Shown: one piece after another, positions 97 through 20,144 of the stretch
Layout: every line of letters begins with the position of its first letter
Numbering within the stretch: position 1 is the first letter of the stretch
From: Eubacteriales bacterium
GTDB lineage: Bacteria > Bacillota > Clostridia > Christensenellales > DUVY01
Length of the DNA: 20,242 nt
Assembly: GCA_031553565.1 (NCBI GenBank)
Contig: JAVBLK010000017.1
Span: 1-20,242, forward strand
Direction: 5' to 3'
The notes under the pieces: model-generated
Databases searched by the model: none
What the model saw: the letters and a program-made list of their open reading frames with translations, nothing else
Told to the model about the DNA's origin: nothing
Program-made: the position numbers and the translations under genes

Positions 97-164
97 GCAG
101 CCTCTTATCACTCTTCCTTTCATGTTAACTTAACACTCCCACACATATAATAATTACAAATTAA

Positions 165-322
165 GGAACCGCTGAATAATTCGGAATAATTTACAGCTGC
201 GTCTTTTTCGCCTGAAAACGTCTTCTTTTTTTGCCAATAGTTCTACTATCTACTGCAAAAACAAGCCGTTTTCATGCTGAAAAATACTTGCTCTAAATTA
301 ACCTCATTTATTCATCGTTTCC
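165..322 (+). repeat. MITE-like ~158-bp repeat, copy A. The ~20-bp imperfect terminal inverted repeats are GGAACCGCTGAATAATTCGG ... (reverse complement) GGAAACGATGAATAAATGAGG. It contains the internal palindrome AATAGTTCTACTAT
   Basis: It aligns almost end to end with 8620-8778 in the same orientation and with 3758-3916 in inverted orientation. The termini are inverted repeats of each other (about 15 of 20 positions). Confidence 0.7.
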
Positions 323-545
323 TTGATTAATCATATCGACAGGCAGAATTGTCTATTGTTGTCTTAACACTTCACCACGCTGTCGTCCGCTGTCATGCTT
401 ACCGGCCAATATTTGGTTAATCATGTAATATTTATAACATTTTTGTTACATATTGTCAAACCTTACATGATTAAAAACCATGCAGATTAGTTATCGGGAT
501 AAAAACATGCGCGGATCATTTTGCATGAATAAAGAATAGAGCTTT

Positions 546-565
546 GGAACCGCTGATAAAATTGG
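546..565 (+). repeat. Solo fragment resembling the left terminus of the MITE-like repeat (GGAACCGCTGATAAAATTGG)
   Basis: 16 of 20 positions match the copy A terminus. No repeat body follows it. Confidence 0.4.
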
Positions 566-633
566 ATAAAAATTGCGCCCGGCAGACGGGCTGCCAAAAG
601 GGGACGGGCGGTTTAAAACGAAAACGGTATCTT

Positions 634-677: not shown

Positions 678-763
678 TGGTGGATGGAGGTGGATTCGAA
701 CCACCGTAGACGTGAGTCGGCAGATGTACAGTCTGCTCCCTTTGGCCGCTCGGGCATCCATCC
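678..763 (-). tRNA. tRNA-Tyr (anticodon GTA), long variable arm, CCA encoded
   Basis: The reverse complement folds as a cloverleaf. The anticodon stem is GCAGA/TCTGC with loop CTGTACA. The T-loop is GGTTCGAATCC and the 3' end is CCA. Length is 86 nt. Confidence 0.9.
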
Positions 764-919
764 AAATGAATGATATTTGATCTATATTCTTGGCCGCTTT
801 TAAGTCCGACCGAATTTTTATCAGATAAAAATTCGCGCCTGGTCGGAAAAACGCGCAGTGAGCATAAGAGCGCAGTTTTTCTTCGCAGAAGAAAACAAGC
901 AAAAGCGAAACGTAGCGTT

Positions 920-995
920 TGGAGCTGGAGATGGGAATTGAACCCGCAACCTGCTGATTACAAATCAGCTGCTCTGCCGATTGAGCTACTCCAGC
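920..995 (-). tRNA. tRNA-Thr (anticodon TGT), CCA encoded
   Basis: The reverse complement reads GCTGGAGTAGCTCAATCGGCAGAGCAGCTGATTTGTAATCAGCAGGTTGCGGGTTCAATTCCCATCTCCAGCTCCA. The anticodon loop is TTTGTAA. Confidence 0.9.
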
Positions 996-1151
996 AAATA
1001 TTTCAGTAGGCTTTCCGGCTTTCCGGCGGGGCAGGCTGTATTTGCATTGCCGGAGCCTTAACTCTATTCAAACTTCGTGCGCGTTCTTTGGCGAATGCGG
1101 CAAAGCCGCTTGCGGGTAATTGTCGTTTTCCGCAGTTTATATTGGGGTTTT

Positions 1152-1228
1152 TGGCGACCTGGAAGGGACTCGAACCCTCGACCTCTAGCGTGACAGGCTA
1201 GCGTTCTAACCAACTGAACTACCAGGCC
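1152..1228 (-). tRNA. tRNA-Asp (anticodon GTC), CCA encoded
   Basis: The reverse complement reads GGCCTGGTAGTTCAGTTGGTTAGAACGCTAGCCTGTCACGCTAGAGGTCGAGGGTTCGAGTCCCTTCCAGGTCGCCA. The anticodon loop is CTGTCAC. Confidence 0.9.
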
Positions 1229-1340
1229 AAAAATGTAACCGCTTTTTCTTTAGGGCAGCTTTCAGAAAAATTGCCGTCAAAAGAAAGCGTGTTTAGGCGC
1301 AGCTTTTCTCCGCAAATAAGCGGGAGAGAAGCGGAGCGTC

Positions 1341-1416
1341 TGGTGCCCCGGGGCGGAATCGAACCACCGACACAAGGATTTTCAGTCCTTTGCTCTACCG
1401 ACTGAGCTACCGGGGC
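1341..1416 (-). tRNA. tRNA-Phe (anticodon GAA), CCA encoded
   Basis: The reverse complement reads GCCCCGGTAGCTCAGTCGGTAGAGCAAAGGACTGAAAATCCTTGTGTCGGTGGTTCGATTCCGCCCCGGGGCACCA. The anticodon loop is CTGAAAA. Confidence 0.9.
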
Positions 1417-1440
1417 GAGGGGGCACGTTTTCAGGGCTTT

Positions 1441-1517
1441 TGGTGGGCCTTCACGGACTTGAACCGCGGACCAATCGGTTATGAGCCGACCGCTCTGACC
1501 AACTGAGCTAAAGGCCC
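1441..1517 (-). tRNA. tRNA with anticodon CAT: elongator tRNA-Met or the lysidine-modified tRNA-Ile2. The initiator is unlikely because position 1 pairs with 72 (G-C) and the anticodon stem lacks three consecutive G-C pairs
   Basis: The reverse complement reads GGGCCTTTAGCTCAGTTGGTCAGAGCGGTCGGCTCATAACCGATTGGTCCGCGGTTCAAGTCCGTGAAGGCCCACCA. The anticodon loop is CTCATAA. Confidence 0.85.
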
Positions 1518-1546
1518 TAATTAACGCTTGAACGCCCGGCAGCGGA

Positions 1547-1623
1547 TGGTCGGGGTGAAGAGACTCGAACTCCCGGCCCCATGCTCCCAAAGCACGTGCG
1601 CTACCAAACTGCGCTACACCCCG
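1547..1623 (-). tRNA. tRNA-Pro (anticodon TGG), CCA encoded
   Basis: The reverse complement reads CGGGGTGTAGCGCAGTTTGGTAGCGCACGTGCTTTGGGAGCATGGGGCCGGGAGTTCGAGTCTCTTCACCCCGACCA. The anticodon loop is TTTGGGA. Confidence 0.88.
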
Positions 1624-1881: not shown

Positions 1882-2190
1882 ATGCGGATAGATAACAAAA
1901 TTGTCAATCAGACATTATACATCGGCCTTTCCGGCGAGCTGGACGAGCATACCTCGCATTACACGCGCCAGACGCTTGATACTCTGATGGCGGCGGACGG
2001 CTATGCGCGTGTAGTGATCGATTTATCCGAGCTTTCTTTTATGGACAGTACGGGCGTCGGCGTACTTATCGGCCGGTTCAAAAAGCTGTCCGGGCGCGGC
2101 CTGCCGATATTTATCGCAAACCCGTCAAAGCAGGCGGACAGGATATTCAATATGACCGGACTGTACGAAATAATGCCGAAAATCTCTTGA
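1882..2190 (+). CDS. spoIIAA: Anti-sigma-F factor antagonist SpoIIAA (STAS domain), 102 aa
   Basis: The size, the STAS-like sequence and conserved motifs fit SpoIIAA: a DSTG motif (the phosphorylatable-Ser loop) and a LSGRG glycine-rich segment. It is the first gene of a spoIIAA-spoIIAB-sigF array. The start at ATG 1882 has only a weak Shine-Dalgarno sequence. Confidence 0.8.
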   Translation: MRIDNKIVNQTLYIGLSGELDEHTSHYTRQTLDTLMAADGYARVVIDLSELSFMDSTGVGVLIGRFKKLSGRGLPIFIANPSKQADRIFNMTGLYEIMPKIS

Positions 2191-2381
2191 CGCGCAGGCG
2201 TATCGGGCGTGTGCGGCAAAGCCACGCAAAAATGCGCCCCGGTCTCATCGTCATGCAGATTTTTACTAAGTAAACGCCGCTGCCCGCCTGAAATGCCAAT
2301 TGATCGCCCATAAAAAATATACTCCTAAACAATATTTCTCCACACTCATTAAACAAGAAACCATAAAGGATACGGGAACCA

Positions 2382-2831
2382 GTGAAAAAGACAGACATCC
2401 TTGAAAACGAAATGAGCCTTGTAGTAAAGGCGATCGGAAAAAACGAGTCGTTTGCGCGCAGTACCGTGGCGGCATTCGCCGTGCAGCTGAACCCAACCCT
2501 GGACGAGGTGAACGACATCAAGACCGCCGTATCCGAGGCGGTGACAAATTGCGTCGTACACGGTTACGAGGGCAAGGGCGGCGGCTATATAACGATAGCG
2601 GCGAAAATTGCGGGGCAGACGCTGTTCATATCTGTTTCCGACAACGGCGTCGGGATCAAGGATATTGAAAAGGCGCGCGAGCCGTTTTTTACCACCAAGC
2701 CTGAACAGGAGCGCAGCGGTATGGGCTTTACCGTCATGGAAACCTTTATGGAGAAGGTAGAGGTGGAATCGGCCGCGGGCAGCGGTACAACCGTACGTAT
2801 GCAGAAAAATATCGGCAGAGTAAAGGCCTGA
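2382..2831 (+). CDS. spoIIAB: Anti-sigma-F factor / serine kinase SpoIIAB (GHKL ATPase), 149 aa, GTG start
   Basis: NESFARSTVAAF...EAVTNCVVHGY...DNGVGI...FFTTKPEQERSGMGFTVME are the N, G1 and G2 boxes of SpoIIAB-type GHKL kinases. AAAGGA lies 11 nt upstream of the GTG. An alternative start is the ATG at 2410. Confidence 0.85.
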   Translation: MKKTDILENEMSLVVKAIGKNESFARSTVAAFAVQLNPTLDEVNDIKTAVSEAVTNCVVHGYEGKGGGYITIAAKIAGQTLFISVSDNGVGIKDIEKAREPFFTTKPEQERSGMGFTVMETFMEKVEVESAAGSGTTVRMQKNIGRVKA

Positions 2832-2921
2832 CGCATGAGAAAAGAAACGACGCTTTAATGGCGGTTACATATTATTTTTTCCTGAAACGCTGACTATCCC
2901 CAAAGGAGATGAACCGCCTAT

Positions 2922-3659
2922 ATGCTGGAACATGAGGAAACCCTTGCCTGCCTTGTAAAAGCCAAGGCGGGGGACGAGCAGGCAAAGGCCGTGCTGCTTG
3001 AACATAATTCGCCGCTGATCAAAAGCATAATCCGCCGCTACAAGAACAAGGGCGTCGACTATGACGACCTTTATCAGCTGGGATGTATGGGACTGTTAAA
3101 GGCTATCAAGAATTTTGACACGTCGTTCAACGTGCGTTTTTCAACATATGCAGTACCGATGATAGCGGGCGAAGTAAAGCGTTTCCTGCGCGATGACGGG
3201 TATATAAAGGTTTCGCGCGCGCTGAAAGTAGTTTCGGGAAAAATTTCGCGCTTTGTCGAGGATTTCAAAAAGCAAAACCTTGCCGACCCGGATGTGGAAA
3301 CCATTGCGCACGAGTTCGGGATGGAGCCGGCCGAAGTCGTGTTTGCGATGGAATCGGCCAAAATGCCTATATCGCTCTTTGAAAAAACCGACAGCCAGGA
3401 CGAAAAATCCCAAAGCCTTATCGACAAGCTGGCGGCAAACGATGATTCTGACGAGCTTTTAGATAAATTGATGCTGAAGGAAATTATTGAAAACCTGGCG
3501 CCGCGCGACAAAAAGATCATCGTTTTAAGATATTTCCGCGACAAAACACAGAGCGAGATATCGCAGATCATGGGGGTCTCGCAGGTTCAGATATCCCGTT
3601 TGGAGAACAAAATAATTTCGGGTATAAAAGCCGCATTCGCGCTTAACAAGCCCTCGTAA
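2922..3659 (+). CDS. sigF: Sporulation sigma factor sigma-F (sigma-70 family, regions 2-4), 245 aa
   Basis: DDLYQLGCMGLLKAIKNFD...RFSTYAVPMIAGE is sigma-70 region 2, and the C-terminal region 4 HTH reads EISQIMGVSQVQISRLE. It sits immediately after spoIIAA-spoIIAB, and AAAGGAGA lies upstream. Confidence 0.85.
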   Translation: MLEHEETLACLVKAKAGDEQAKAVLLEHNSPLIKSIIRRYKNKGVDYDDLYQLGCMGLLKAIKNFDTSFNVRFSTYAVPMIAGEVKRFLRDDGYIKVSRALKVVSGKISRFVEDFKKQNLADPDVETIAHEFGMEPAEVVFAMESAKMPISLFEKTDSQDEKSQSLIDKLAANDDSDELLDKLMLKEIIENLAPRDKKIIVLRYFRDKTQSEISQIMGVSQVQISRLENKIISGIKAAFALNKPS

Positions 3660-3705
3660 GCGCATAGCCTTCACATAATACCTGATCCGTGCTATAAAAT
3701 AAAAA

Positions 3706-3739
3706 CACCCCGCGGCGCTGCCGCGGGGTGTAAAATTTT
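3706..3739 (+). terminator. Rho-independent terminator of the spoIIA-sigF operon (CACCCCGCGGC-GCT-GCCGCGGGGTG + TAAAATTTT)
   Basis: Perfect 11-bp GC-rich stem with a 3-nt loop, followed by a T tract. Confidence 0.85.
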
Positions 3740-3757
3740 GGAGCAAATCAGTTTTGA

Positions 3758-3916
3758 GGAAACGATGAATAAATGAGGTTAATTTAGAGCAAGTATTTTT
3801 AAGTCAGAAAACGGCTTGTTTTTGCAGCAAATAGTAGAACTATTGGCAAGAAAAGAAGACGTTTTCATCCGAAAAAGACTTGCGCTATATATTTTGCTTA
3901 AATTTTCAGCGTTTCC
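3758..3916 (-). repeat. MITE-like repeat, copy B, inverted relative to copies A and C
   Basis: The reverse complement of 3758-3916 aligns with copy C at about 90% identity. Its terminal GGAAA overlaps the left inverted repeat of the adjacent IS by about 5 nt. Confidence 0.7.
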
Positions 3917-5196
3917 TTAACAAAGATGCGAATAAGTCTTTTAAGCAAAACATGCAATAGAGATAAATGTGATAAAATAATGATATGGAAAAGCAAGTAA
4001 GTTTTAGTGAACTTGAGTATAGCGGGAAACGGAAAAAGACAAAGCGGGAAATATTTCTTGAAGCAATGGAACAGATAGTACCGCTTGAAATGATGTGCGA
4101 AATAATAAGGCCGCATTATGCGGTAGCGGGGAACGGCAGACAGCCGATAGAGCTAAAAAAGATGATAAAGATGTATCTAATCAGCCAATGGTACAATTTA
4201 TCTGATGAAATGACCGAGGACACGATATACGAGAATCAAGCGGTACGGCGGTATGTGGGAATAGAGTTGGCGCAAGAGAATGCGCCTGATAGAACGACAT
4301 TAGGGAAATTTCGCGCAAGTCTGGAAAAGCACGGCTTGAACAAGAAAATTTTTGAGGAAATGAATAAGCGGTTTAAGGAACAAGGGATAATACTTCGGGA
4401 AGGAACAATAGTAGACGCAACCATAATACAAGCACCGGCATCAACGCGCAACAAAACTAAAAGCCGAGACCCGGAAATGAGCAGCACAAAAAAGAATAAC
4501 AACCATCATTTTGGTTTCAAAGCGCATATAGGCGTAGACAAAGAAAGCGGGCTAATACACGATATAGCTGTAACGACAGCGAAAACTGCAGACATAGAGG
4601 CGGCGGCAAGCGTAATGCACGGCGAAGAAAAAGAGATATTGGGCGATGCAGGTTTTATCGGTCTAGAAAAGCGAGAAGACATTATAAATAGATTTGGTCA
4701 AGAGCCGATAGAGAATCTGGCAATTGCCCCGATAAGAAGAGGGCCTAAAGCAAAAGTAAAACCGCAGCTAAAAAAAGAAATATGTGTAAAAATAAATAGG
4801 CGGCGCATGAAAATCCACAAAATGCCGGATGGCGAAGAAAAGGATCGGCTAAAAGCGGAAGAAAAAGCAAAGTCGCAAATACGCGCAAAGGTCGAGTATC
4901 CGTTTCGGATAATGAAAGTAATTTTTGGATTTAGAAAGACAAGATATAAGGGTCTTGATAAAAACGAAAATAAACTATATATGCTTTTTGGATTGGTCAA
5001 CCTCTATTTTGTTATGCAAAAAAACAAGTTGTCCACACAGAAAGCATAAAAAAGGTCAAAAAAACGAAATAAACCGGAAAAAATAAGAAAAGCAAAAAAG
5101 TATGTTCGATTAAAAAGGTTTTGAAGCGCCCTAATTGTCCACAAAAAACTTAGGACGCTTCCAAAACCTTACTTAATCGCATATTCGATAAGGAAA
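3912..5196 (+). mobile_element. IS5-family insertion sequence (~1.28 kb) with imperfect ~26-bp terminal inverted repeats (left TTTCCTTAACAAAGATGCGAATAAGT, right reverse complement TTTCCTTATCGAATATGCGATTAAGT)
   Basis: The terminal repeats match at 20 of 26 positions and flank a single DDE transposase ORF. The body is AT-rich compared with flanking genes. Confidence 0.75.
3985..5049 (+). CDS. IS5-family DDE transposase, 354 aa
   Basis: GTIVDATIIQAP, HFGFKAHIGVD and a C-terminal YKGL...N...LVNLY are the characteristic N2/N3/C1 blocks of IS5/IS1182-group transposases. Confidence 0.8.
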   Translation: MEKQVSFSELEYSGKRKKTKREIFLEAMEQIVPLEMMCEIIRPHYAVAGNGRQPIELKKMIKMYLISQWYNLSDEMTEDTIYENQAVRRYVGIELAQENAPDRTTLGKFRASLEKHGLNKKIFEEMNKRFKEQGIILREGTIVDATIIQAPASTRNKTKSRDPEMSSTKKNNNHHFGFKAHIGVDKESGLIHDIAVTTAKTADIEAAASVMHGEEKEILGDAGFIGLEKREDIINRFGQEPIENLAIAPIRRGPKAKVKPQLKKEICVKINRRRMKIHKMPDGEEKDRLKAEEKAKSQIRAKVEYPFRIMKVIFGFRKTRYKGLDKNENKLYMLFGLVNLYFVMQKNKLSTQKA

Positions 5197-5207
5197 TCAT
5201 ATTTAAC

Positions 5208-7154
5208 ATGGAAGAAAACAAAGATAAATCCTCACTTTCATTTTCCCCCGAACGGGTTTCTTTTGACGGGCAGACAGGAACGGAGAAAGAAAAAATTCCT
5301 GCTAACGAGGCGGACAGCCCCAAAGAAAAAAGCCCGTACTCATACGGCGGCCAGGCGCTTATCGAGGGCGTTATGATGCGCGGGCGGACTTCGATGGCAA
5401 TCGCCGTAAGGGAGCCGTCGGGGAACGTGGCGACCGAATGCAAGCGTATCGCCGACGTGCGGAAAAGTATCTGGTACCGTATTCCCGTCGTCCGCGGCGT
5501 GTTCAATTTCGGCGCGACGCTGGTGATGGGCTTTAAGACACTTATGCGCAGCGCGGAGGCGGCGGGCGAGGAGGACGAGCAGCTGGGCAAGGGCGGTATG
5601 GCGTTCGCGGTCATAATCGCGCTGGCGCTGTTTGTCGGGTTGTTTATATTTGTGCCGCGGCTTGCGGCGTCCGGCCTTGAAAGGTGGCTTTTTGAGGGGC
5701 ACCGTTACGCGTTCCTTTTTACGAATATCACCGAGAGCGTCTTGAGGATAATAATATTCATACTATACTTGTGGGGCGTTTCGCTGATGAAAGACATCAG
5801 GCGCACATACATGTACCACGGGGCGGAGCATAAGACCATAAACGCATATGAAAAGGGCGCGGAGCTGACGGTTGAAAATGTCAAAAAGCACAGTACGCGC
5901 CACAACCGCTGCGGCACGACGTTCCTGTTCTTTGTCATCGTGATCAGTATTTTTGTCTTTACGCTGGTTACGTGGGGCTGCGCCGAATTGGGTTTAAGAT
6001 ACGACGCGACAGGGGCGGACGGCCTTTCAAACCGCTTTTTATACAACGTGATACTTATGGCTATAAGGATCGCGCTGCTGCCGTTTGTCGCGGGGCTGTC
6101 CTACGAGCTGCTGCGTTTATTGGCAAGGGGCAAGGACAGCAATATTGTCTTACGTATATTGCGCGCGCCGGGGCTTGGACTGCAGCGGCTGACGACAAAG
6201 GAGCCGACTGACGATATGCTGGAGGTTGCGATCGCGTCCTTTCACGCGGCGTACGCAATGGATCACGACCCGGATATGCAGGACTACAAGTTTCAGCTAA
6301 CCTACGACTTTAAAAGGTTTTACGACGCTAAAAAGGAAGCGCTTGCCGCCGCGGGAGTAAGCGACGGGGCCGCCCTTGACTGGGTATGCTGCGATATATT
6401 GAACGTAAGCCGCGGGGGCTTGAACGGGCTTAAGCTTATAAGCCGCGGGGACGGGGACAAAATAGCTGCGGCATGCGATAAACTGAAGGCCGGGCAGCCG
6501 CTGCAATACGTGCAGGGCTTTACAGAGTTTATGGGCAATAAGTTTACCGTCGATAAATCTGTGCTTATCCCCAGGCCGGAGACCGAGCTTCTGGCTGAGG
6601 CCGCGGTCAAATATGCGGTGAGTTTAAAGGCGCAGGGCGGAGAAATACATGCCCTTGACCTCTGCTGCGGCAGCGGCTGTATCGGGATCACCCTCGCCCT
6701 TAAGGCCGGGATAAGCGTGACGCTGTCCGACGTCAGCGCGGACGCAGCGGCAACCGCCGGGAAAAACGCGGACAGTTTAGGCGCGCAAAACATAACGGTT
6801 GTTAACTGCGATATGCTTACAGGGCTTTCGGGCGGCTACGACATTATTACATTTAATCCGCCGTACATAAGGACCGCGGATATCGAAACGCTGGAAAGAA
6901 CGGTAAAAGACCACGAGCCCGTACTTGCCCTTGACGGCGGCGCGGACGGGCTGGATTTTTACAGAAGGCTGCATGGCGCCTTAACGCAGCCCCCAAAAGA
7001 CGGTACGCCGTATTTAAGGGCCGGCGGCAGGGTTTTTATGGAGATAGGAAAGGGTCAGGCGCAGGATATCAGGGACATATTCAAGGGATTTAACGTCGAA
7101 ACTATACAAGACTATAACGGCATCGAGAGAATATTGGTCTTATTTAAGGAATAA
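5208..7154 (+). CDS. prmC: Fusion protein: an N-terminal DUF1385 (YqhQ-like) domain followed by a C-terminal release-factor glutamine N5-methyltransferase PrmC/HemK; 648 aa
   Basis: The N-terminal half carries YGGQALIEGVMMRG and a multi-pass membrane region typical of DUF1385. The C-terminal half carries VLIPRPETE, LDLCCGSGCIG and the NPPY catalytic motif. The ORF is continuous and sits directly upstream of prfA. Confidence 0.8.
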   Translation: MEENKDKSSLSFSPERVSFDGQTGTEKEKIPANEADSPKEKSPYSYGGQALIEGVMMRGRTSMAIAVREPSGNVATECKRIADVRKSIWYRIPVVRGVFNFGATLVMGFKTLMRSAEAAGEEDEQLGKGGMAFAVIIALALFVGLFIFVPRLAASGLERWLFEGHRYAFLFTNITESVLRIIIFILYLWGVSLMKDIRRTYMYHGAEHKTINAYEKGAELTVENVKKHSTRHNRCGTTFLFFVIVISIFVFTLVTWGCAELGLRYDATGADGLSNRFLYNVILMAIRIALLPFVAGLSYELLRLLARGKDSNIVLRILRAPGLGLQRLTTKEPTDDMLEVAIASFHAAYAMDHDPDMQDYKFQLTYDFKRFYDAKKEALAAAGVSDGAALDWVCCDILNVSRGGLNGLKLISRGDGDKIAAACDKLKAGQPLQYVQGFTEFMGNKFTVDKSVLIPRPETELLAEAAVKYAVSLKAQGGEIHALDLCCGSGCIGITLALKAGISVTLSDVSADAAATAGKNADSLGAQNITVVNCDMLTGLSGGYDIITFNPPYIRTADIETLERTVKDHEPVLALDGGADGLDFYRRLHGALTQPPKDGTPYLRAGGRVFMEIGKGQAQDIRDIFKGFNVETIQDYNGIERILVLFKE

Positions 7155-7166
7155 GGAAAAAAAGCA

Positions 7167-8246
7167 GTGTTTGAAAAACTGGCAGGAATAAAGCAGAGGT
7201 ACGAGGAGCTCAGCAAGCAGGTCTCCGACCCTTCGATAATAGGCAGCCGCGAGAAATGGACGCCCCTTGTAAAGGAGCATTCGTCGCTTACGCCAATTGT
7301 GGAGACATACGACAGGTATTTAAAGGCCGACGCGGATCTTAAAGAGGCGCAGGGCATGCTGAAGGGCGAATCTGACCCGTTAATGCGCGAATTCTTACAA
7401 GGCGAGATCGACAGGAACCTTCAGGAAACGGCTAAGATCGAGGAAGAGCTGAAAATACTGTTGCTGCCGGTCGATCCCGACGACGACAAGGACGTCATAA
7501 TCGAGGTCAGGGCGGGCGCGGGCGGCGACGAGGCGGGCTTGTTCGGCGCGCAGATCGTGCGTATGTACAAGATGTACGCTGCGCTTATGGGTTGGAAGGT
7601 CGAGGATATCGACTATAACGAGTCCGAGGCGGGCGGTATCAAGGAAGCCACTATTTCTATATCGGGCAAGATGGTCTACAGCAATTTAAAGTACGAGAGC
7701 GGCGTGCACAGGGTGCAGAGGGTGCCCGAGACCGAGACCCAGGGGCGCGTCCATACCTCTACTATTACCGTCGCGGTATTGCCCGAGGTCGAGGAAGTGA
7801 CGGTAGAAGTATTGGAAAAGGACCTGAAGATCGACACATACAGATCGGGCGGCGCGGGCGGCCAGCATGTCAACAAGACCGAGAGCGCGATCAGGATCAC
7901 ACATTTACCGACAGGCGTCATCGTCGCGTGCCAGGACGAACGCAGCCAGATAAAGAACCGCGAAAAGGCGATGAAGGCGTTGCGCGCAAAGCTTTACGAT
8001 ATGCAGAAGCTCGAGGCCGAAAAGAATTACGCGGGGATGAGGAAGGCGCAGATAGGCACGGGCGACCGCAGCGAACGTATCAGGACGTACAATTTTCCGC
8101 AGGGGCGCGTCAGCGACCACAGGATCAACCTGACCCTGTACAACATCCAGTACTTTATGAACGGCGAGATAGGCGAGATGATAGAGGCTTTGAGGATAGC
8201 CGCGCAGGCCGCCGCCCTCCAGGGCGCCGCCGGGAATCAGGCGTGA
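7167..8246 (+). CDS. prfA: Peptide chain release factor 1, 359 aa, GTG start
   Basis: The GGQ motif (SGGAGGQHVNKTESA), the PxT-class RF1 domain architecture and the N-terminal LAGIKQRYEELSKQVSDPSII all match RF1. Confidence 0.9.
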   Translation: MFEKLAGIKQRYEELSKQVSDPSIIGSREKWTPLVKEHSSLTPIVETYDRYLKADADLKEAQGMLKGESDPLMREFLQGEIDRNLQETAKIEEELKILLLPVDPDDDKDVIIEVRAGAGGDEAGLFGAQIVRMYKMYAALMGWKVEDIDYNESEAGGIKEATISISGKMVYSNLKYESGVHRVQRVPETETQGRVHTSTITVAVLPEVEEVTVEVLEKDLKIDTYRSGGAGGQHVNKTESAIRITHLPTGVIVACQDERSQIKNREKAMKALRAKLYDMQKLEAEKNYAGMRKAQIGTGDRSERIRTYNFPQGRVSDHRINLTLYNIQYFMNGEIGEMIEALRIAAQAAALQGAAGNQA

Positions 8247-8461
8247 TACGGGCTACGTGCGGCAATCCCGCCTCGGTCACGTAGGTCACGACTACGCTCC
8301 CTCGGCGGTTTACCGCCTGTTGCCCGTCTGCCGCCTGATTCCCGACGGCTTGACGCGGGTGCATAAGGGGCATGATCCGGGCTGCGTGCGGAAAATCTAT
8401 CGTATGTCAGCGCGGCGAAGCCACTTTTTTTATGAAAATGGCGGTTTGGCGGCAGATATGC

Positions 8462-8490
8462 TTTACTTTATGGGCGGTATATGGTAAAAT
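8462..8490 (+). promoter_or_regulatory. Candidate promoter with an extended -10 (TTTACT-17 nt-TGgTAAAAT)
   Basis: A TG-extended -10 TAAAAT lies at 8485-8490 and -35 TTTACT at 8462-8467. It would drive an ~80-nt transcript that ends at the 8551-8580 terminator. Confidence 0.4.
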
Positions 8491-8496
8491 ACTACA

Positions 8497-8580
8497 AGTG
8501 TTAGGAAAGTTCGGCGGAAAAACAAATTGATCCACGGGTACTCGTTCAAAGGGTTGAAAATAGGTTCAACCCTTTTTATA
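8497..8580 (+). ncRNA. Candidate small RNA (~80 nt) between prfA and purF, bounded by a promoter and an intrinsic terminator. No family assigned
   Basis: A promoter-like element sits upstream and a GGGTTGAA-AATAG-GTTCAACCC hairpin plus TTTTT sits downstream. No ORF lies inside. Confidence 0.3.
8551..8580 (+). terminator. Rho-independent terminator (GGGTTGAAC stem, TTTTTATATTT tail)
   Basis: Perfect stem at 8551-8558 / 8565-8572, followed by five T residues. Confidence 0.75.
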
Positions 8581-8619
8581 TTTATCCGGGAGCCTGTTTT
8601 TGGAAAATCGGCGCGGAAG

Positions 8620-8778
8620 AAAAAGTAAAGAAGTTTAGGAATCGCTGAATAATTCGATATAATTTAGTAGCGGCGTCTTTTTCGGATGAAAACGTCTTCT
8701 TTTATTGCCAATAGTTCTACTATTTGCTGCAAAAACAAGCCGTTTTCATACTGAAAAATACTTGCCCTAAATTAACCT
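8620..8778 (+). repeat. MITE-like repeat, copy C, flanked on both sides by TTTA
   Basis: It aligns with copy A over its whole length and has the same orientation. TTTA occurs at 8616-8619 and again at 8779-8782, a possible target-site duplication. Confidence 0.7.
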
Positions 8779-8854
8779 CATTTATTCATCGGTTCCTTTA
8801 AAGTAGATTTACTAAATTGTATTTTATGCGCCTTGTTAGCGGAGGATAGTACAT

Positions 8855-10237
8855 ATGAGAAAGCTTAACGAAGAGTGCGGTGTGTTCGGAATATACGGGC
8901 ATCCGGACGCGGCAAAGATGACGTATTACGGGCTTTACGCGCTGCAGCACCGCGGACAGGAAAGCTGCGGCATAGCCGTAAACGACGACGGCAATATAAA
9001 GCTTGTACGCGATATGGGCCTTGTCAACGAGGTGTTCAACACCGGGAATATGGCCGGTATGACAGGGAATATCGCCATCGGCCACGTGCGCTACGCCGTG
9101 CAGAGCGAGGCTAACCGCGAGAACGCACAGCCGCTGGTATCGCGCTATGTCAAGGGCAGCCTGTCCATGGCGTACAACGGCTGTCTTTTAAACGCGGGCG
9201 ACCTGCGCGGAAATCTGGAGAGCAAGGGCGCAATATTCCATTGCACCAACGACGCCGAAGTCATAATGCACCTTTTGGCGATTGCGAGGACGCGCACGCA
9301 TTCAATAGAGGAGTCGGCAGAGGAGGTCATGAATAAGCTTGCGGGCGCGTATTCGATAGTTCTCATGAGCCCGCGCAAGATGCTGGGGATGCGCGACCCC
9401 AACGGTTTTAGGCCGCTATGCATAGGGACTTTGGGCGACAGCTATATTTTGGCGTCCGAATCCAGCGCGTTCGACGTTATCGGCGCCAGCTTCTTACGCG
9501 ACGTCAATCCCGGCGAGATAGTCCTTATCGACGGCCAAGGGCTGCACAGTATCATGCCCGTAAAGAAGCGGAAGCCGTCGTTATGCGTGTTCGAATACGT
9601 ATATTTTGCGCGGCCGGACAGCGTGATCGACGGCGTCAGCGTCTATGACGCCAGGCTTGCGGCAGGCAAACTGCTGGCCAAGGCCCATCCGGTCGCGGCC
9701 GACATAGTTATCGGCGTCCCCGACAGCGGCCTTACGTTTGCGGCAGGCTATGCCGAGGGCAGCGGGATCCCGCTGCGCGACGGCTTTATCAAGAACAGAT
9801 ATACCGGCAGGACCTTTATCAAGCCAAAGCAGAGCGAGAGGGAAATGGCCGTCAGTATTAAGCTGAACGTGCTTAAAACGAACGTTGCGGGAAAGCGCGT
9901 GGTCATGGTCGACGACAGCATCGTGCGCGGCACGACCTGCTCCAATATCATAAAGGCGCTCAAAAAAGCCGGGGCGAAGGAAGTGCATATGCGCGTCGCC
10001 TCGCCGGCGTTTTTGTGGCCGTGCTATTTCGGCACAGACATCCCGCAAAGGAAAGACCTTATCGCTGTCAGTATGACGCTGGAACAGATACGCGAAAGGA
10101 TAGGCGCCGATACGCTGGCGTACCTTCCGTTAAAGGATATCCCGAATATGGCGCTGCGATCCGATTTCGGCTATTGCACCGCCTGTTTTGACGGCAAGAC
10201 GCCGATAAAGATACCCCCGCACATGGTAATAAACTGA
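8855..10237 (+). CDS. purF: Amidophosphoribosyltransferase PurF (class II glutamine amidotransferase with a 4Fe-4S cluster), 460 aa
   Basis: The MRKLNEE propeptide is followed by the catalytic Cys (CGVFGI). There is a PRTase motif (VVMVDDSIVRGTT), C-terminal cluster cysteines (CYFGTD, CTACFDG) and GGAGGA 9 nt upstream of the ATG. Confidence 0.9.
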   Translation: MRKLNEECGVFGIYGHPDAAKMTYYGLYALQHRGQESCGIAVNDDGNIKLVRDMGLVNEVFNTGNMAGMTGNIAIGHVRYAVQSEANRENAQPLVSRYVKGSLSMAYNGCLLNAGDLRGNLESKGAIFHCTNDAEVIMHLLAIARTRTHSIEESAEEVMNKLAGAYSIVLMSPRKMLGMRDPNGFRPLCIGTLGDSYILASESSAFDVIGASFLRDVNPGEIVLIDGQGLHSIMPVKKRKPSLCVFEYVYFARPDSVIDGVSVYDARLAAGKLLAKAHPVAADIVIGVPDSGLTFAAGYAEGSGIPLRDGFIKNRYTGRTFIKPKQSEREMAVSIKLNVLKTNVAGKRVVMVDDSIVRGTTCSNIIKALKKAGAKEVHMRVASPAFLWPCYFGTDIPQRKDLIAVSMTLEQIRERIGADTLAYLPLKDIPNMALRSDFGYCTACFDGKTPIKIPPHMVIN

Positions 10238-10865: not shown

Positions 10866-11780
10866 CTATATCTTGCTGATATCGTACGGGGTTTCCTGGT
10901 ATACGCAGTAGTTCAGCCAGTTGGCGAAAAGGATGTGGGAGTGGGCGCGCCAGACGTTTCGCGGCTTCTTAGTTTCATCGTTGTCAGGATAGTAATGCAG
11001 GGGTTTTTCGATAGGCAGCCCGGCTTTTAAGTCGCGCTTATATTCGCGGTCAAGGGTGTCGGCGTCGTATTCGCCGTGGCCGGTCACAAATATCTGTCTG
11101 AGGTCGCGGCTGGCGGCCAGATATACGCCGGCCTCGCCGCTTTCGCAAAGCAGTTCCAGCTTGTCGCAGGCCAGGATATCCTCGCGTTTTATAAACGTAT
11201 GGCGGCTGTGCGGCGCCCAAAAGACCTCGTCAAAGCCGCGCACGATCGGGTTGTTGAGGTTAAGCACGTTGTGCGGGAAAATGCCGAAAACTTTTTTGTC
11301 CGTATCGTATTTGTTTATGCCGTAGTGATAGTACAGGCCGGCCTGCGCCGCCCAGCAGATATAAAGGGTGGAAAAGACGTTCTTATCCGCCCACTTCATT
11401 ATTTTAGTCAGCTCCTTCCAGTATTTTACGTCCTGAAAATCCAGCTTTTCGACCGGCGCGCCGGTTATGATAAGGCCGTCGAATTTTTCCTTCTCGATCT
11501 GCTTGAACGTGCGGTAAAACTCGGCGAGGTGGCTTTCGGATGTATTGCGGCTTTTATAGGTTTCGGTGTGCAAAAGAACGGCGTCCACCTGCAGCGGCGT
11601 GTTTCCGATAAGCCGCAGAAGCTGCGTTTCGGTGACCTCTTTCGTAGGCATCAAATTGAGTATGGCGATCCTGAGCGGCCTTATCTCCTGGCTTTCGGCG
11701 CGCTGGGCGGTCATAACGAATATATTTTCCTGCTCCAGGAGTTTCTTGGCGGGAAGATTAGATGGTATCCTTACCGGCAT
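10866..11780 (-). CDS. metA: Homoserine O-acyltransferase MetA, 305 aa from the second in-frame Met
   Basis: [11 protein letters not shown]...ENIFVM...[13 protein letters not shown]...GNTPLQV are MetA family blocks. AAAGGAGA lies 6 nt upstream of the ATG at 11780, which is why this start was chosen over the ORF-track start at 11819. Confidence 0.85.
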
Positions 11781-11900
11781 AGTCGTTCTCCTTTTCAATG
11801 CCCTGCGCGCCGGGATCAAACGTCAAAAAGCGGTCGGTCTGTTCGGCGGAGCGGCAAACTGAAAGTTTTCTTGCAAGTTTCTTACTTGTAAGTTCCTTAC

Positions 11901-14093: not shown

Positions 14094-14843
14094 ATGAGGA
14101 TGTTATTACTAAGTTTGACTTCATGGTGGGGAGACCTCAACAATTTCACAAAGGTATTTTATATAATCGCGATAGCGGCCAGCCTTATCCTGCTTATACA
14201 GCTGATCATCGCTATGTTCGGCTTCGGGCATGACGCGGACGTCGGCGGCGCGGACGCGGATATGGGCGGCGACGTCGGCGCGGGCGGCGCGGATTACGAC
14301 GCGGGGACAGACCTTGGCGGGCATGATATCGCGCATGACGCCGGCGGGCACGACGTCAGCCACGGCGGCGCGGGATTAAGGCTGTTCTCCGTGCAGACGA
14401 TAGTCAGCTTTCTGGTCACCTTCGGCTGGAGCGGCGTGGCCTTCGGCAGCACCGCAATGCCCCAATGGCTTGCGTTTATCATAGCGTTCCTTATCGGTAC
14501 AGTGACGCTTTTCGGTATGGCGAAGCTGATGCAGGCGATGATGAAATTACAGTCTGCGGGCAACATCGACTTAAAGAATGCCGTCGGGCTTTCGGGCGAG
14601 GTATATATCCCCGTGCCGGCAAACCAGGGCGGCATGGGCAAGGTCAATATAACGATACAGGGACGCCTCGGCGAATATAACGCGGTAACCTTAGGCGAAG
14701 AGCTCTTAAAGACCGGCGTGTTTGTTAAAGTTGCCGAGGTGCGCGGAAACACCTTGGTAGTTGTAAAGGACGACGGGGCAAGGCTGCCGCAAACTGAAAC
14801 AGCGGATGCGCAAATTGAAGTAAAGCCCAAAAAGCGCAAGTAA
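14094..14843 (+). CDS. NfeD-like membrane protein (YuaF/YqeZ type) with a C-terminal OB-fold domain and an unusual Asp/His/Gly-rich insert, 249 aa
   Basis: N-terminal transmembrane helices; a low-complexity acidic segment GHDADVGGADADMGGDVGAGGADYDAGTDLGGHDIAHDAGGHDVSHGG; further transmembrane helices; and a C-terminal beta-rich region (GEVYIPVP...GKVNITIQGRLGEYNAV...VFVKVAEVRGNTLVVV). The gene sits directly upstream of SPFH genes. Confidence 0.7.
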   Translation: MRMLLLSLTSWWGDLNNFTKVFYIIAIAASLILLIQLIIAMFGFGHDADVGGADADMGGDVGAGGADYDAGTDLGGHDIAHDAGGHDVSHGGAGLRLFSVQTIVSFLVTFGWSGVAFGSTAMPQWLAFIIAFLIGTVTLFGMAKLMQAMMKLQSAGNIDLKNAVGLSGEVYIPVPANQGGMGKVNITIQGRLGEYNAVTLGEELLKTGVFVKVAEVRGNTLVVVKDDGARLPQTETADAQIEVKPKKRK

Positions 14844-14867: not shown

Positions 14868-15404
14868 ATGCCGCTTGGAGTAGTGATAGGCACACTTGCC
14901 GCAGTAATATTAGTATGCATAGCTGTGATCGCTTTATGGATGTCACGATATAAGAAATGCCCGTCCGACAAGATTATGGTCATCTACGGTAAGGTCGGCG
15001 TCGATAAAGAGGGCAAACCAATAACGGCAAAGTGCTTGCACGGCGGCGCGGCATTTATTATGCCGGTAATCCAGGCCTACGCTTTCCTCGATCTTGCGCC
15101 TATCGGCATCGAGATCGCGCTGTCGCAGGAAGAGGGCAGCTTTAGGGGAACTTTCGCGGTCGCGGTTTCAACCGAGCCGGGGCTTATGCAATGCGCTGCC
15201 GAAAGGCTGATGGCGCTGTCCAGAAAAGATATTGCCGAGCTTGCGGACAGCATATTGCGCAGCCACGTACGCCAGATATTGTTTGATAAAAGCGCAGGCC
15301 GCCGCGAGATAGCGCAAACAATTGCGGAGGCAGCCGGGCCGGATCTAAATAAAGTAGGCCTCCATATTGTTAACGCAGACATTTCAGAATACAAGCTTAT
15401 ATAA
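14868..15404 (+). CDS. Short SPFH (band-7) domain protein, 178 aa. It is a diverged tandem paralogue of the N-terminal half of the downstream flotillin
   Basis: SRYKKCPSDKIMVIYGKVG...HGGAAFIMPVIQAYAFLDL parallels SRYKRCPADKILVIYGKVG...HGGAAFIMPVTQSFQFLDL in the next gene. It ends where the flotillin coiled-coil would begin. Its RBS is GAGGGAGA. Confidence 0.7.
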   Translation: MPLGVVIGTLAAVILVCIAVIALWMSRYKKCPSDKIMVIYGKVGVDKEGKPITAKCLHGGAAFIMPVIQAYAFLDLAPIGIEIALSQEEGSFRGTFAVAVSTEPGLMQCAAERLMALSRKDIAELADSILRSHVRQILFDKSAGRREIAQTIAEAAGPDLNKVGLHIVNADISEYKLI

Positions 15405-15448: not shown

Positions 15449-16870
15449 ATGGAATTAGGTGCAATCATCGGTATTATCCTTGCGGTCATTTTTGTTGTTG
15501 TCGCAGTTGTGCTTATTTGGGCGTCGCGCTATAAAAGGTGCCCGGCGGATAAGATCCTTGTTATCTACGGTAAGGTAGGCAAGAACAGCGCGGGCGGGAA
15601 CATCTCGGCAAAGTGTATTCACGGCGGCGCGGCCTTCATTATGCCCGTAACGCAGAGCTTTCAGTTCTTGGATCTTACGCCTATGTCGATCAGCGTCGAC
15701 CTTAAGAACGCGCTGTCGCGCCAGAACATACGTATCGACGTGCCCAGCCGCTTTACGGTCGCCATCTCGACCGAGCAGGGCGTTATGCAGAACGCTGCGG
15801 AAAGGCTGCTGCGCTTGAAGCTGCCCGAAATACAGGAGCTGGCTAAGGATATCATATTCGGACAATTACGTCTTGTCATCGCGCAGATGGAGATCGAGGA
15901 GATCAATACCGACCGCGATAAGTTTTTACAGGCGGTTTCGCAGAACGTGGAGACCGAGCTTAAGAAGATCGGTTTAAGGCTTATCAACGTCAACATAACC
16001 GACATCAACGACGAGAGCGGATATATCCAGGCGTTAGGCCGCGAGGCCGCCGCAAAGGCGATCAACGACGCGAAGAAGAGCGTTGCCGAAAAAGACCGCG
16101 ACGGCGCGATCGGACAGGCGAACGCGCAGAGGGACCAGCGTATCCAGGTATCCAACGCCAACGCTTTGGCGGTCGAGGGCGAAAACAAGGCCAAGGCCGA
16201 GATCGCCCAGTCCGACGCGACAAGGCGCGAGAAGGAGGCAGAAGCCTTAAAGCGCGCTATGGCGGCCGAAAAGGTGCAGGCGGCAAAAGCCTTGCAGGAA
16301 GCCTATGTGGCGCAGCAGCTGGCTGAAACCACCCGTGCAACACTTGAAAAGGCGACTTTGGCGGCGGACGTTATTGTAAAAGCCGATATCGAAAAGCAGA
16401 AGATCGAGATCGCAGCCGAGGCCGAGGCAGAGAACCTGCGCCGCAGGGCAAAGGGCGAGGCGGACGCTATCTTTGCAAAGATGCAGGCGCAGGCGAAAGG
16501 TATCAACGAGATGCTGACCAAGCAGGCGGACGGCTTAAAGGAAATCGTAAAGGCCGCGAACGGCAATCCCGATGCGGCAGTACGCCTTATGATAACCGAC
16601 AAGCTGGAGGATATCGTAAAGGTACAGGTCGAGGCGGTCAAGAACCTGAAGATCGACAAGGTCACCGTTTGGGACAGCATGGGCGGCGCGGGCGGAAGCG
16701 GCGCGCCCGCAACGGCGAACTTTTTGTCGGGAATGTTGAAGTCCGTACCACCCTTAAACGACCTCTACAAGATGGCGGGGCTGGAGCTGCCGGAATTTTT
16801 AGGCAAGCAACAGTCCGATGCGCCCGAAAAGCTTGACGCAGGCGAAAAGAAAGCGCCTGCCAAGAAGTAA
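15449..16870 (+). CDS. floT: Flotillin (FloT/YuaG-like) with an N-terminal membrane hairpin, an SPFH domain and a long Ala/Glu-rich coiled-coil, 473 aa
   Basis: SPFH blocks followed by EA-repeat coiled-coil (AEKDRDGAIGQANAQRDQRIQVS...AEAEAENLRRRAKGEADAIFAKMQAQAKG). The RBS is AAAAGGAGAA. Confidence 0.8.
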   Translation: MELGAIIGIILAVIFVVVAVVLIWASRYKRCPADKILVIYGKVGKNSAGGNISAKCIHGGAAFIMPVTQSFQFLDLTPMSISVDLKNALSRQNIRIDVPSRFTVAISTEQGVMQNAAERLLRLKLPEIQELAKDIIFGQLRLVIAQMEIEEINTDRDKFLQAVSQNVETELKKIGLRLINVNITDINDESGYIQALGREAAAKAINDAKKSVAEKDRDGAIGQANAQRDQRIQVSNANALAVEGENKAKAEIAQSDATRREKEAEALKRAMAAEKVQAAKALQEAYVAQQLAETTRATLEKATLAADVIVKADIEKQKIEIAAEAEAENLRRRAKGEADAIFAKMQAQAKGINEMLTKQADGLKEIVKAANGNPDAAVRLMITDKLEDIVKVQVEAVKNLKIDKVTVWDSMGGAGGSGAPATANFLSGMLKSVPPLNDLYKMAGLELPEFLGKQQSDAPEKLDAGEKKAPAKK

Positions 16871-17781: not shown

Positions 17782-18006
17782 ATGAGAAAATCTATTAAGC
17801 TGATTATAGCTATGGTTTTTGCAGTTTTTATCGCCTTTACAGCGTTCACTTTTATTAAGCCAGCTGAAGTGGCCGCGAATTCCGGCGTTTCGGGCGCGCC
17901 GACTGGACAAGCATTACTGAGTGCGACAAATACATATAATATCGATTATTTCAGCACACAGCCGTTGAATCGTGGTCAGGGGGACGTTTACCTTGACAGA
18001 GAATAG
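17782..18006 (+). CDS. Small secreted protein (74 aa) whose last 10 codons (GQGDVYLDRE) and stop codon are supplied by the left arm and loop of the hairpin repeat. Probably a truncated gene
   Basis: Signal peptide MRKSIKLIIAMVFAVFIAFTAFTF. The C-terminus is identical to that of ORF 19011-20066 and is encoded by repeat sequence starting at 17974. Confidence 0.5.
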   Translation: MRKSIKLIIAMVFAVFIAFTAFTFIKPAEVAANSGVSGAPTGQALLSATNTYNIDYFSTQPLNRGQGDVYLDRE

Positions 18007-18052
18007 AGAGATTGAGGCTTATAGTCCTGTCAAGGTAAACGTCCCCCTGACC
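17974..18052. repeat. Hairpin repeat, copy 1. Perfect 26-bp inverted arms (GGTCAGGGGGACGTTTACCTTGACAG / CTGTCAAGGTAAACGTCCCCCTGACC) are separated by a 27-nt spacer. It is the first part of a duplicated module of at least 227 bp (17974-18200 nearly identical to 20034-20242)
   Basis: The arms are exact reverse complements at 17974-17999 and 18027-18052. The second copy at 20034-20112 differs by one spacer base. Confidence 0.9.
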
Positions 18053-18083
18053 ACTTTGATACGTTGCCTGAAAACGTGCGTGA

Positions 18084-18338
18084 ATGATGGAGCAGAAGAC
18101 ATACAATTGGCTTGAGCATGAGGATAAGGTTTATGAGGCCTTTGGCAATGTGCTGACAGAACTAGTAAATAAATATAAAATTGATGATAAAAAAGCTTTG
18201 AAGGACGACGAGTTGCTAAAACGGATAGGGATTGAACTGCGAAACCGTACGGGCGCGAGTAAGAGACTGATAGCGCAAAAGCTGGAAATCGATCGGGAAC
18301 GGGTAAGAAAACTGCTGTCAATTGCCCCGTCCCCGTGA
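18084..18338 (+). CDS. Small helix-turn-helix protein, 84 aa. The C-terminal HTH resembles sigma-70 region 4 and the HTH of IS630/transposase helper proteins. The first ~32 codons are duplicated at 20145
   Basis: LLKRIGIELRNRTGASKRLIAQKLEIDRERVRKLL shows the HTH pattern. The gene start lies inside the duplicated module, 32 nt after the hairpin. Confidence 0.55.
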   Translation: MMEQKTYNWLEHEDKVYEAFGNVLTELVNKYKIDDKKALKDDELLKRIGIELRNRTGASKRLIAQKLEIDRERVRKLLSIAPSP

Positions 18339-19010: not shown

Positions 19011-20066
19011 ATGAGAACCGAAACACTTTTCAAGAGACAATGGAAAATTTCGGTTATAGCACTGGTGTTAATAGTACTTGTCGCAAGTATATTGTGTGCA
19101 ACAATTCCAACAACAGCATACGCAAAAGAAGTAGATTTTGCGGAAAATACAATTCAGCGACGAATTCCAACACTTAATGACGATTTTGACGATAGCAAAG
19201 TTATTGTTGTTCTTAACCAAAAGAATAGTAAATACAATGGTGTAGTTAGAATTGAGGATTTTAAGATAGACGTAGAAAAGGCAAGTCTGGTTAATACTCA
19301 ACGGACTGAACGTTTAGATAGAAGCGATGATTCCGCTACGGATGCAGTTAAAACTGGACAAGCAGTAGTCACCGACCTTTTTCGGGTAGATAATGCGAAA
19401 AGTAGTAGTTTGGTGAGCGAAAGCGAGTTTTTTCAAATACTATCTATTGATTTGCCTATAAGAGGAAAAGAAAAGGTTCTTGAGGCGATAGCAGAGCTTA
19501 AAAAATCTGAGATAGTTTATTCTGCTGAGCCAGATTATCGTTACGAAACGATTGATTTGTGGGCACCTAACGATACGAACTATACCACTAGTCAGTGGGG
19601 GTTAACGGGAACAAATGGGATACAAGCAGCAAATGCTTGGGATATGACGCGAGGTCTTGCTGATATTAGAGTGGGCTTATTTGAAACAGGTGCGCAGCAA
19701 AATCACCCCGACCTAGACGGCAGGTTTTTGGCACCAAATTTTACATTAGGTAATGCAGACCATGGAACTCACGTTGCAGGAATTGTGGGTGCCATTTCAA
19801 ATAATAATCAAGGAGTAGCAGGCGTTTCACAATCTAATATGATGTTGCTAAATCGCAATTCAAACGATTTTGTTGACAGCATGGCAAGGGCTGCAAATAA
19901 TAATATTTGGGTTATCAACGCTAGTTACGAGTACATAAGCGGTGGCGTAATAGAAAATCACGCAGTTGCAATACATAATTACCAAGGTTTGCTCGTGTGC
20001 GCCGCAGGCAACAGCACTGCAGATATTGATAATGGTCAGGGGGACGTTTACCTTGACAGAGAATAG
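19011..20066 (+). pseudogene. Subtilisin-like (S8) serine protease with a signal peptide and an I9 propeptide. It is truncated after the oxyanion-hole Asn region by the hairpin repeat, so the catalytic Ser block is missing, and it has Glu at the catalytic Asp position
   Basis: The His block HGTHVAGIVGA and the Asn block LVCAAGNS are present. The Asp-block position reads GLFETGAQQNHPDL. The ORF ends with GQGDVYLDRE-stop, which is encoded by the repeat from 20034. No GTSMA block appears before the window ends. Confidence 0.6.
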
Positions 20067-20112
20067 AGAGATTGAGGCTTCTAGTCCTGTCAAGGTAAAC
20101 GTCCCCCTGACC
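20034..20112. repeat. Hairpin repeat, copy 2 (same 26-bp perfect arms, 27-nt spacer with one substitution)
   Basis: The arm and spacer sequence is identical to 17974-18052 except for A to C in the spacer. Downstream similarity continues to the window end, with a single inserted A. Confidence 0.9.
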
Positions 20113-20144
20113 ACTTTGATACGTTGCCTGAAAACGTGCGTGAA

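Follow-up and report, generated by a model that had tools for sequence, protein, structure and literature searches.

Prokaryotic MITEs range in size from ~50 to ~500 bp. Correia/NEMIS of Neisseria, RUP of Streptococcus pneumoniae and ERIC/IRU of enterobacteria, as these families are generally described, are ~100–170 bp long, non-coding and intergenic, with terminal inverted repeats (TIRs) and hairpins predicted when they are transcribed; they are of the same kind as the repeat described here, but have other ends, TA-type or other duplications and other presumed transposases (IS630 in the case of RUP), and no sequence relationship to it. REPs are GC-rich imperfect palindromes of 20–40 bp that lack a target duplication and are associated with RAYT, and IS200/IS605-type elements are without TIRs and 4-bp duplication-like flanks. 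The present repeat resembles E. coli IS5 and the IS5 group: its ends (GGAAMCGMTGAATAA) fit the IS5 pattern GGAA-N5-GAATAA (IS5 GGAAGGTGCGAATAAG; repeat GGAAACGATGAATAAA), and its flanks appear to share the 4-bp YTAR-type target duplication, whereas IS5 is ~1.2 kb long and carries a transposase, the repeat is ~159 bp long without one, and the ends of the two agree at 10/17 positions (IS5A, through the GGAA...GAATAA frame). IS5 itself duplicates 5'-YTAR-3', TTAA included (PMC5009759). The repeat is very probably a non-autonomous MITE of the IS5 group, which would be moved in trans by a DDE transposase recognising its ~17-bp ends and inserted at TTAA-like sites with a 4-bp duplication.

The window (the whole stretch of 20,242 nucleotides that was analysed, a complete NCBI contig from an uncultured member of the Clostridia) contains three full-length copies of the repeat, designated A, B and C (Table 1), all of which were recovered by a repeat finder, a MAFFT alignment and an nhmmer profile. 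Pairwise identity is 84% for A/B, 91% for A/C and 86% for B/C. An earlier note, made from the same sequence, had proposed three full-length copies at ~85–90% identity, and this is borne out (84–91%; nhmmer E values of 1e-51 to 1e-54); its coordinates were correct for copies A and B, but those for copy C (8620–8778) were ~18 bp too low. Because the copies differ from one another by 9–16%, they would be old insertions. At 158–159 bp the repeat is small enough for a MITE and has no coding capacity as judged from an ORF scan of copy A, in which the longest overlapping ORF is 27 aa; the earlier statement that no ORF lies inside any copy thus holds for copy A, the one copy scanned.

Table 1. Positions of the repeat copies, the neighbouring insertion sequence and the genes of the window.
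Feature	Position	Strand	4-bp flanks	Details
Repeat copy A	165–322	+	TTAA 161–164; TTGA 323–326	158 bp; in AT-rich DNA 3' of the minus-strand tRNA cluster; nhmmer E = 1e-52
Lone left end, possibly from a degraded copy	546–574	+	no TTAA flank	GGAACCGCTGATAAAATTGGATAAAAATT
Six tRNA genes	678–1623	-		
spoIIAA-spoIIAB-sigF	1882–3659			
GC-rich terminator-like hairpin	3705–3731			precedes copy B
Repeat copy B	3758–3916	-	TTGA 3754–3757; TTAA 3917–3920 (forward strand); TTAA/TCAA on element strand	159 bp; 98 bp 3' of the sigF stop; nhmmer E = 1e-51
Complete IS5-family (IS5 group) insertion sequence	3921–5187	+	TTAA 3917–3920; ATAA 5188–5191	1267 bp; inverted repeats CAAAGATGCGAATAAGTC, CGAATATGCGATTAAGT
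Transposase gene of this insertion sequence	3985–5049	+		354 aa; DUF772 and DDE_Tnp_1 (Pfam E = 1.5e-26 and 4.8e-18)
DUF1385-prmC fusion	5208–7154			
prfA	7167–8246			
Lineage-specific prfA-purF spacer, including copy C	8225–8844			620 bp; not in L010
Repeat copy C	8638–8796	+	TTTA 8634–8637; TTTA 8797–8800	159 bp; perfect 4-bp pair; end 58 bp 5' of the purF start codon; nhmmer E = 2e-54
purF	8855–10237			
metA	10866–11819	-		

The copies begin with GGAA[C/A/T]CGCTGAA... and end with ...TTCATCG[T/G]TTCC. The two ends of copy A (GGAAMCGCTGAATAA and GGAAMCGATGAATAA) agree at 14/17 positions, so that terminal inverted repeats are present, and conservation among the three copies is best in the right arm, right end included. 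The TIRs of ~20 bp described earlier are found at the ends as stated, but the symmetry is not limited to these ~20 bp; rather, the whole element is self-complementary, each copy being 70–75% identical to its own reverse complement across its full length. Folding, which had been suggested as a check, yields a single long hairpin per copy that is stable on both strands (−44.7 and −51.8 kcal/mol; z = −7.9 and −7.2). The internal palindrome AATAGTTCTACTAT is likewise present, as the tip of this whole-element hairpin rather than as a separate feature.

A dispersed-copy test of the window gives three copies and one possible fragment within 20 kb. This fragment, first noted as a 20-bp terminus-like sequence at 546–565, opens with an exact 11-mer of the copy A end (GGAACCGCTGA), for which the chance expectation in the window is by our own estimate ~0.02 (0.75 if one mismatch is allowed), and the repeat finder gives 17/21 identity to the repeat end; the profile match, however, is weak and not significant (nhmmer E = 0.84), and TTAA is lacking. 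On these grounds a remnant copy end is plausible.

The 4-bp flanks are as previously reported, TTTA/TTTA at copy C and TTAA/TTGA at copies A and B, the members of the pair agreeing at 4/4 positions for C and at 3/4 each for A and B. To judge from their sequence they look like target duplications, and the imperfect pairs of A and B fit old insertions. The TTTA of copy C is not a YTAR sequence, and represents a non-canonical site that is duplicated exactly. As a set, the TTAA-like flanks are of the YTAR type that is duplicated by the IS5 group, with two of the three pairs imperfect.

The ends were compared with those of IS5-group elements over 17 positions, all aligned in one register starting at the 4-bp flank; as a baseline, stretches located after other TTAA sites of the window score 5.2/17 on average and 11 at most. 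The right end of the repeat (GGAAACGATGAATAAAT) agrees with the left end of P0013-type insertion sequences (CAAAACGATGAATAAGT, preceded by TTAA) at 14/17 positions, 13 of them consecutive. The same score of 14/17, in the same register from the TTAA flank, is obtained for an end of the element IS-Y (L017) against the left end of the repeat, and for the end of an IS5 remnant on a plasmid of Halomonas sp. KO116, where TTAA followed by GGAAACACTGCATAAAT lies ~90 nt 5' of a truncated IS5-type transposase remnant that is homologous to the transposase of the window (E = 1e-15). IS5-type terminal sequence is thus found by direct comparison both with IS5A (10/17) and with closer members of the clade (14/17). 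Agreement at 15/17 positions is shown by a 294-bp palindromic element on L011 (GGAAACAATGATTAAAT and GGAACCAATGAATAAAT, TTAA on both sides), which adjoins an insertion sequence with a transposase 67% identical to that of the window and a TTAA/TTAA duplication. A 107-aa gene call without a Pfam match (L011, 288–611) spans the 294-bp element (281–570) and runs ~40 bp past its right end.

TTAA recurs in these elements as the site of insertion. The P0013-type insertion sequence, whose transposase is 54% identical to that of the window, occupies three different sites, each TTAA/TTAA (L012, L013 and L014); the P0008-type element has TTAA at both ends across L017–L021, as IS-Y has beside both of its ends; and the duplication is a perfect TTAA/TTAA wherever the contig includes both flanks (L011, L012, L013, L014). 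Compared with the YTAR of IS5, the clade studied here appears much stricter for TTAA. The P0013 type (L012–L016), IS-Y and the Halomonas remnant come from other organisms and show no internal similarity to the repeat by eye; the outermost two bases differ in L013 (CA versus GG in the repeat), and one of them differs in IS-Y (GT versus GG). The elements of L013 and L017 encode full-length IS5-type transposases. Accordingly, the earlier idea that an element carrying a transposase might be found with the same ends holds for related ends (14/17) but not for identical ones: the retrieved contigs yielded no autonomous insertion sequence whose ends are the same as those of the repeat. Because the ends, the 4-bp flanks and the type of target all agree, the repeat is placed in the IS5 group.

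The insertion sequence listed in Table 1, which together with its transposase is absent from the earlier note, lies directly beside copy B. Judged by its sequence, the transposase is an IS5-group protein, with 42% identity over its full length to InsH of E. coli IS5 (BLASTP E = 2e-98) and ~48% identity to IS5-family transposases of Ralstonia. Its gene, with the DUF772 and DDE_Tnp_1 domains, starts 69 bp from copy B, and the left TTAA of the insertion sequence is common to both elements, which therefore abut end to end. This element could be the autonomous partner that mobilises the repeats: as a complete member of the IS5 group with a full-length transposase ORF, it meets copy B at the shared TTAA, and on L011 the 67%-identical transposase likewise adjoins a MITE with the same end type. 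This interpretation is nevertheless unlikely. The inverted repeats of the resident element match those of the repeat at 9/17 positions only, whereas insertion sequences with more distant transposases reach 14/17; similarity stops at the GAATAA core and does not extend into the subterminal sequence; and the adjacency is also explained if TTAA duplications offer ready targets. Because of the match of just 9/17, the resident element is probably not the mobilising partner, and the partner of the MITE is more probably a different member of the IS5 group, located elsewhere in the genome or since lost.

Related loci bear on the question, raised earlier as a possible refutation, of whether the repeat is ancestral intergenic DNA rather than an insertion. 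In L010, the closest locus available, whose purF product is 84% identical to that of the window, there is a 4-nt overlap between prfA and purF; the nucleotide match with the window breaks off at 8224 and starts again at 8845, and prfA has different last codons. Because prfA overlaps purF in L010, the 620 bp that include copy C would be derived and not ancestral. At prfA-purF the sequence is thus missing from the relative, though the gap comprises 620 bp and is not a clean empty site of 163 bp (159 + 4 bp). The remainder of this spacer (8225–8637) has features of its own: a GC-rich hairpin of 124 nt that starts in the last codons of prfA (arms 8226–8268 and 8307–8349), the motif GATMCGGGCTRCGTGCGG at 8245 and again at 8374, a promoter-like site with an extended −10 TG (8462–8490) and a terminator-like hairpin (8548–8575). 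These could frame a short transcript of ~60–90 nt; Rfam gave no match for 8225–8637 at gathering score.

At copy B the gene order also differs from that of relatives. The two nearest relatives of the DUF1385-prmC fusion (L136, 7808–8011; L137, 4286–4489) have rpmE (L31) and an ABC transporter upstream, not sigF, and copy B and the IS5-family element (both within 3660–5207 of the window) sit exactly at this synteny breakpoint. L001, an independent Logan contig whose sigF is identical, breaks off 30 nt into copy B, where a repeat would be expected to interrupt an assembly.

Elements with similar ends were sought in other genomes. The exact right-end 20-mer TTAACCTCATTTATTCATCG has no match in the species-representative genomes, and this species is therefore absent from that collection; the central 19-mer finds eight loci in JGI metagenome contigs, all of them bare chance matches of 19–22 nt. 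By contrast with the ~4 chance matches expected by our own estimate, a degenerate pattern consisting of the end plus TTAA (TTAAGGAAMCRMTGAATAAWT, ~38 bits) occurs at 113 loci or more in species-representative genomes. Among the matches listed, most belong to MAGs of rumen and gut origin that represent Oscillospiraceae, Ruminococcus, Acutalibacteraceae and other Clostridia, and some to Treponema/Spirochaetia, Desulfovibrionaceae, Thiopseudomonas, Pseudomonas and Halomonas relatives; several genomes hold many loci, which in RUG13064 are spread over at least 9 contigs. A partner end is present within 320 bp in 62 of the at least 113 loci (again among the matches listed), giving element lengths that peak at 159–172 bp, and the flank left unconstrained by the pattern is TTAA in 48 and YTAR in 54 of these 62. 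The paired-end elements also fold back, with a median MFE of −56 kcal/mol versus −32 kcal/mol for shuffles.

These 159–172-bp elements (L022–L134; GGAAMCACTGAATAAAT...GATTTAATCAGTGYTTCC with TTAA on either side), from Oscillospiraceae, Ruminococcus and Acutalibacteraceae MAGs and some Spirochaetia and Proteobacteria, thus have in common with the repeat of the window the outer ~17–20 bp, the size class, the hairpin architecture and the TTAA flanks. They differ from it in their interiors, which are not detectably homologous by profile: the nhmmer profile of the three copies found nothing at E ≤ 0.01 in all fetched loci, and only the element of L022 gives a full-length global alignment to copy A, a weak one, with 18 identical end bases. 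Because the interiors have no detectable homology, it is mainly the ends that link the repeat to the larger group. The elements are best treated as sister families, and on the sequences compared we regard that of the window as a family of its own in a wider group with common ends.

No transposase was found in association with these loci, either in a tblastn search of the 113 listed loci (8 kb each) with the transposase of the window or, by eye, as a recognisable ORF in the long paired-end candidates (L027, L036, L072, L117, L066, L025, L062 and L026). The long paired-end loci were considered as full-length insertion sequences and rejected as such, since by eye the ORFs between their ends look ordinary (nucleotidyl-transferase-like in L072 and L062, for example); such loci resemble pairs of MITEs with ordinary genes between them. 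At the other extreme of length are minimal end-to-end palindromes that consist of the two terminal repeats only (L091, at the element start, and L061; e.g. GGAAACGCTGAATAATTCAGCGTTTCC), which look like elements of this type reduced by extreme deletion.

For the end sequences, neither a name nor a description was found in Rfam or the open-access literature (subscription journals and ISfinder being outside this scope), and nothing specific was found in the open-access literature on IS5/TTAA MITEs in bacteria. The window family and the larger end-sharing group are probably unnamed, and relatives with the same ends are common in gut Clostridia and apparently undescribed. The repeat had been called previously unnoticed, which agrees with the open-access literature and Rfam, but any wider novelty is unsupported.

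End-to-end abutment through a shared TTAA, seen in the window between copy B and the insertion sequence, is found elsewhere as well: a MITE and two insertion sequences follow one another on L011 (272–2002), IS-Y adjoins an insertion sequence on L017–L021 (L017, 90–1380; ends of L019–L021), and two MITEs adjoin on L072 (~7576) and L096 (~50). Such sharing could be simple re-use of a duplicated TTAA, or a real preference for ends. A preference for abutting insertions is not established, as 2 of 285 element ends abut in other genomes among the matches listed, a frequency that chance could produce at high copy number. A broader proposal can be made tentatively, and is more doubtful than not: that the element of the window belongs, as one branch, to a large and so far unnamed superfamily of fold-back MITEs of the IS5 group (~160–171 bp, ends GGAAMCRMTGAATAA) that are TTAA-specific, occur across phyla and are abundant in gut and rumen Oscillospirales, and that, in addition, IS5-group insertion sequences and these MITEs preferentially re-use the TTAA at each other's ends. 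If the preference were true, the abutments in the window and on L011, L017–L021, L072 and L096 would point to target choice guided by the terminal repeats, and re-use of TTAA could contribute to breaks in synteny, for example at the sigF / DUF1385-prmC junction.

The surroundings of the copies were considered for a role in the host. As the earlier note had correctly stated, the repeat occurs 3' of sigF and 5' of purF. A consensus scan for outward promoters and terminators in the copies found nothing convincing, its sole find being an inward-reading AATAAT over the left end of copy A; by eye, a perfect TATAAT directed towards purF is present at 8656–8661, in copy C only. Orientation relative to the neighbours is inconsistent, in that copy C points to purF and copy B away from the adjoining gene, and no U-tract follows the hairpin of the element. 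When the window and 12 related loci were compared with Rfam 15 at gathering score, only tRNAs matched, and at E ≤ 1 the region of copy A and the fragment (window 100–620) gave just two chance miRNA matches and no family.

These observations bear on a second interpretation, namely that the repeat is a host element kept by selection, acting as a transcribed hairpin RNA, as an RNase III or stability element, or by terminating transcription or binding a protein. The very stable hairpin on both strands (z about −7 to −8), the intergenic position of all copies near gene ends or starts and the TATAAT of copy C would all be compatible with such a role. It is nonetheless highly improbable, given that no Rfam family matches window 100–620 even at E ≤ 1, that the orientation is inconsistent and the U-tract missing, that the TATAAT is confined to copy C, and that a function purely at the RNA level would need neither the conserved right arm nor ends homologous to those of insertion sequences with TTAA-type flanks. 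The regulatory repeat with effects on neighbouring genes that had been offered as an alternative is likewise not supported by the promoter and terminator scan and the orientations, and it is unproven that the copies affect how purF, sigF or the tRNAs are expressed. A palindromic repeat, REP/BIME-like or of another type, propagated by RAYT/Y1, by IS200/IS605-type single-strand transposition or by recombination, which would suit a palindromic, intergenic and multi-copy element, can be rejected almost with certainty on size and composition (158–159 bp and AT-rich), on the true TIRs and 4-bp duplication-like flanks and on ends that match those of DDE-type IS5 elements, and no Y1 or RAYT gene or domain is present among the 18 large ORFs scanned in the window.

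The window contains other repeats and hairpins, which were observed in passing. The left contig end (1–120) has a G/C-run hairpin (GGGGGACA...TGTCCCCC, ~61–90) and no ORF of ≥80 aa. Towards the right end, two direct repeats of ~210 bp (17972–18181 and 20033–20242) are 99–100% identical and 2060 bp apart; each contains a perfect 28-nt inverted repeat (GTGGTCAGGGGGACGTTTACCTTGACAG) and carries the start of an 84-aa ORF, the first being followed by a 150-aa ORF and then a subtilase (Peptidase_S8) gene, and the second reaching the contig end. Either a tandem cassette or a collapse or breakpoint of the assembly could account for them. Two adjoining SPFH/Band-7 paralogues (14868–15404 and 15449–16870) include DNA segments 76–77% identical at an offset of 581 bp (repeat families D5 and D8), and the ORF just 5' of the pair (14094–14843) has GC-rich short repeats resembling CGGCGCGGACG at 14225–14373.

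The reading of the repeat as an IS5-group MITE, proposed in more general form at the outset as a non-autonomous transposable element, therefore stands on its size, the lack of an ORF, the TIRs, the 4-bp flanks, the agreement of 14/17 with IS5-group ends, the absence of the sequence from L010 and the existence of like elements elsewhere. The mechanism would be as follows. The element is 158–159 bp long, non-coding and self-complementary throughout, and its outer ~17 bp (GGAAMCGMTGAATAAWT) most likely serve as the binding and cleavage sites of an IS5-group DDE transposase. This transposase, supplied in trans, would excise the element, which would then insert at a TTAA-like (YTAR-type) site by way of a 4-bp staggered cut, so that the target is duplicated. 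Both transposition in trans and the identity of the transposase are what we infer.

IS5-type ends and TTAA-type sites mark the repeat as an ordinary kind of bacterial mobile DNA; the derivation of MITEs from insertion-sequence families is already well known, and the understanding of their mechanism is unchanged. What the MITE reading does account for are three unannotated intergenic repeats and the break in an independent assembly (L001). It identifies the sigF-prmC and prfA-purF junctions as places that would have been remodelled by mobile DNA, purF being separated here from a prfA that it overlaps in the relative. The end motif together with the TTAA flank provides a simple signature, which picks out >100 elements in uncultured gut Clostridia and in other phyla. 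Elements of this kind break up the assemblies of MAGs, can be wrongly annotated as genes (as in the 107-aa ORF of L011) and can bring structure into transcripts, and a named family with a model would aid their annotation.
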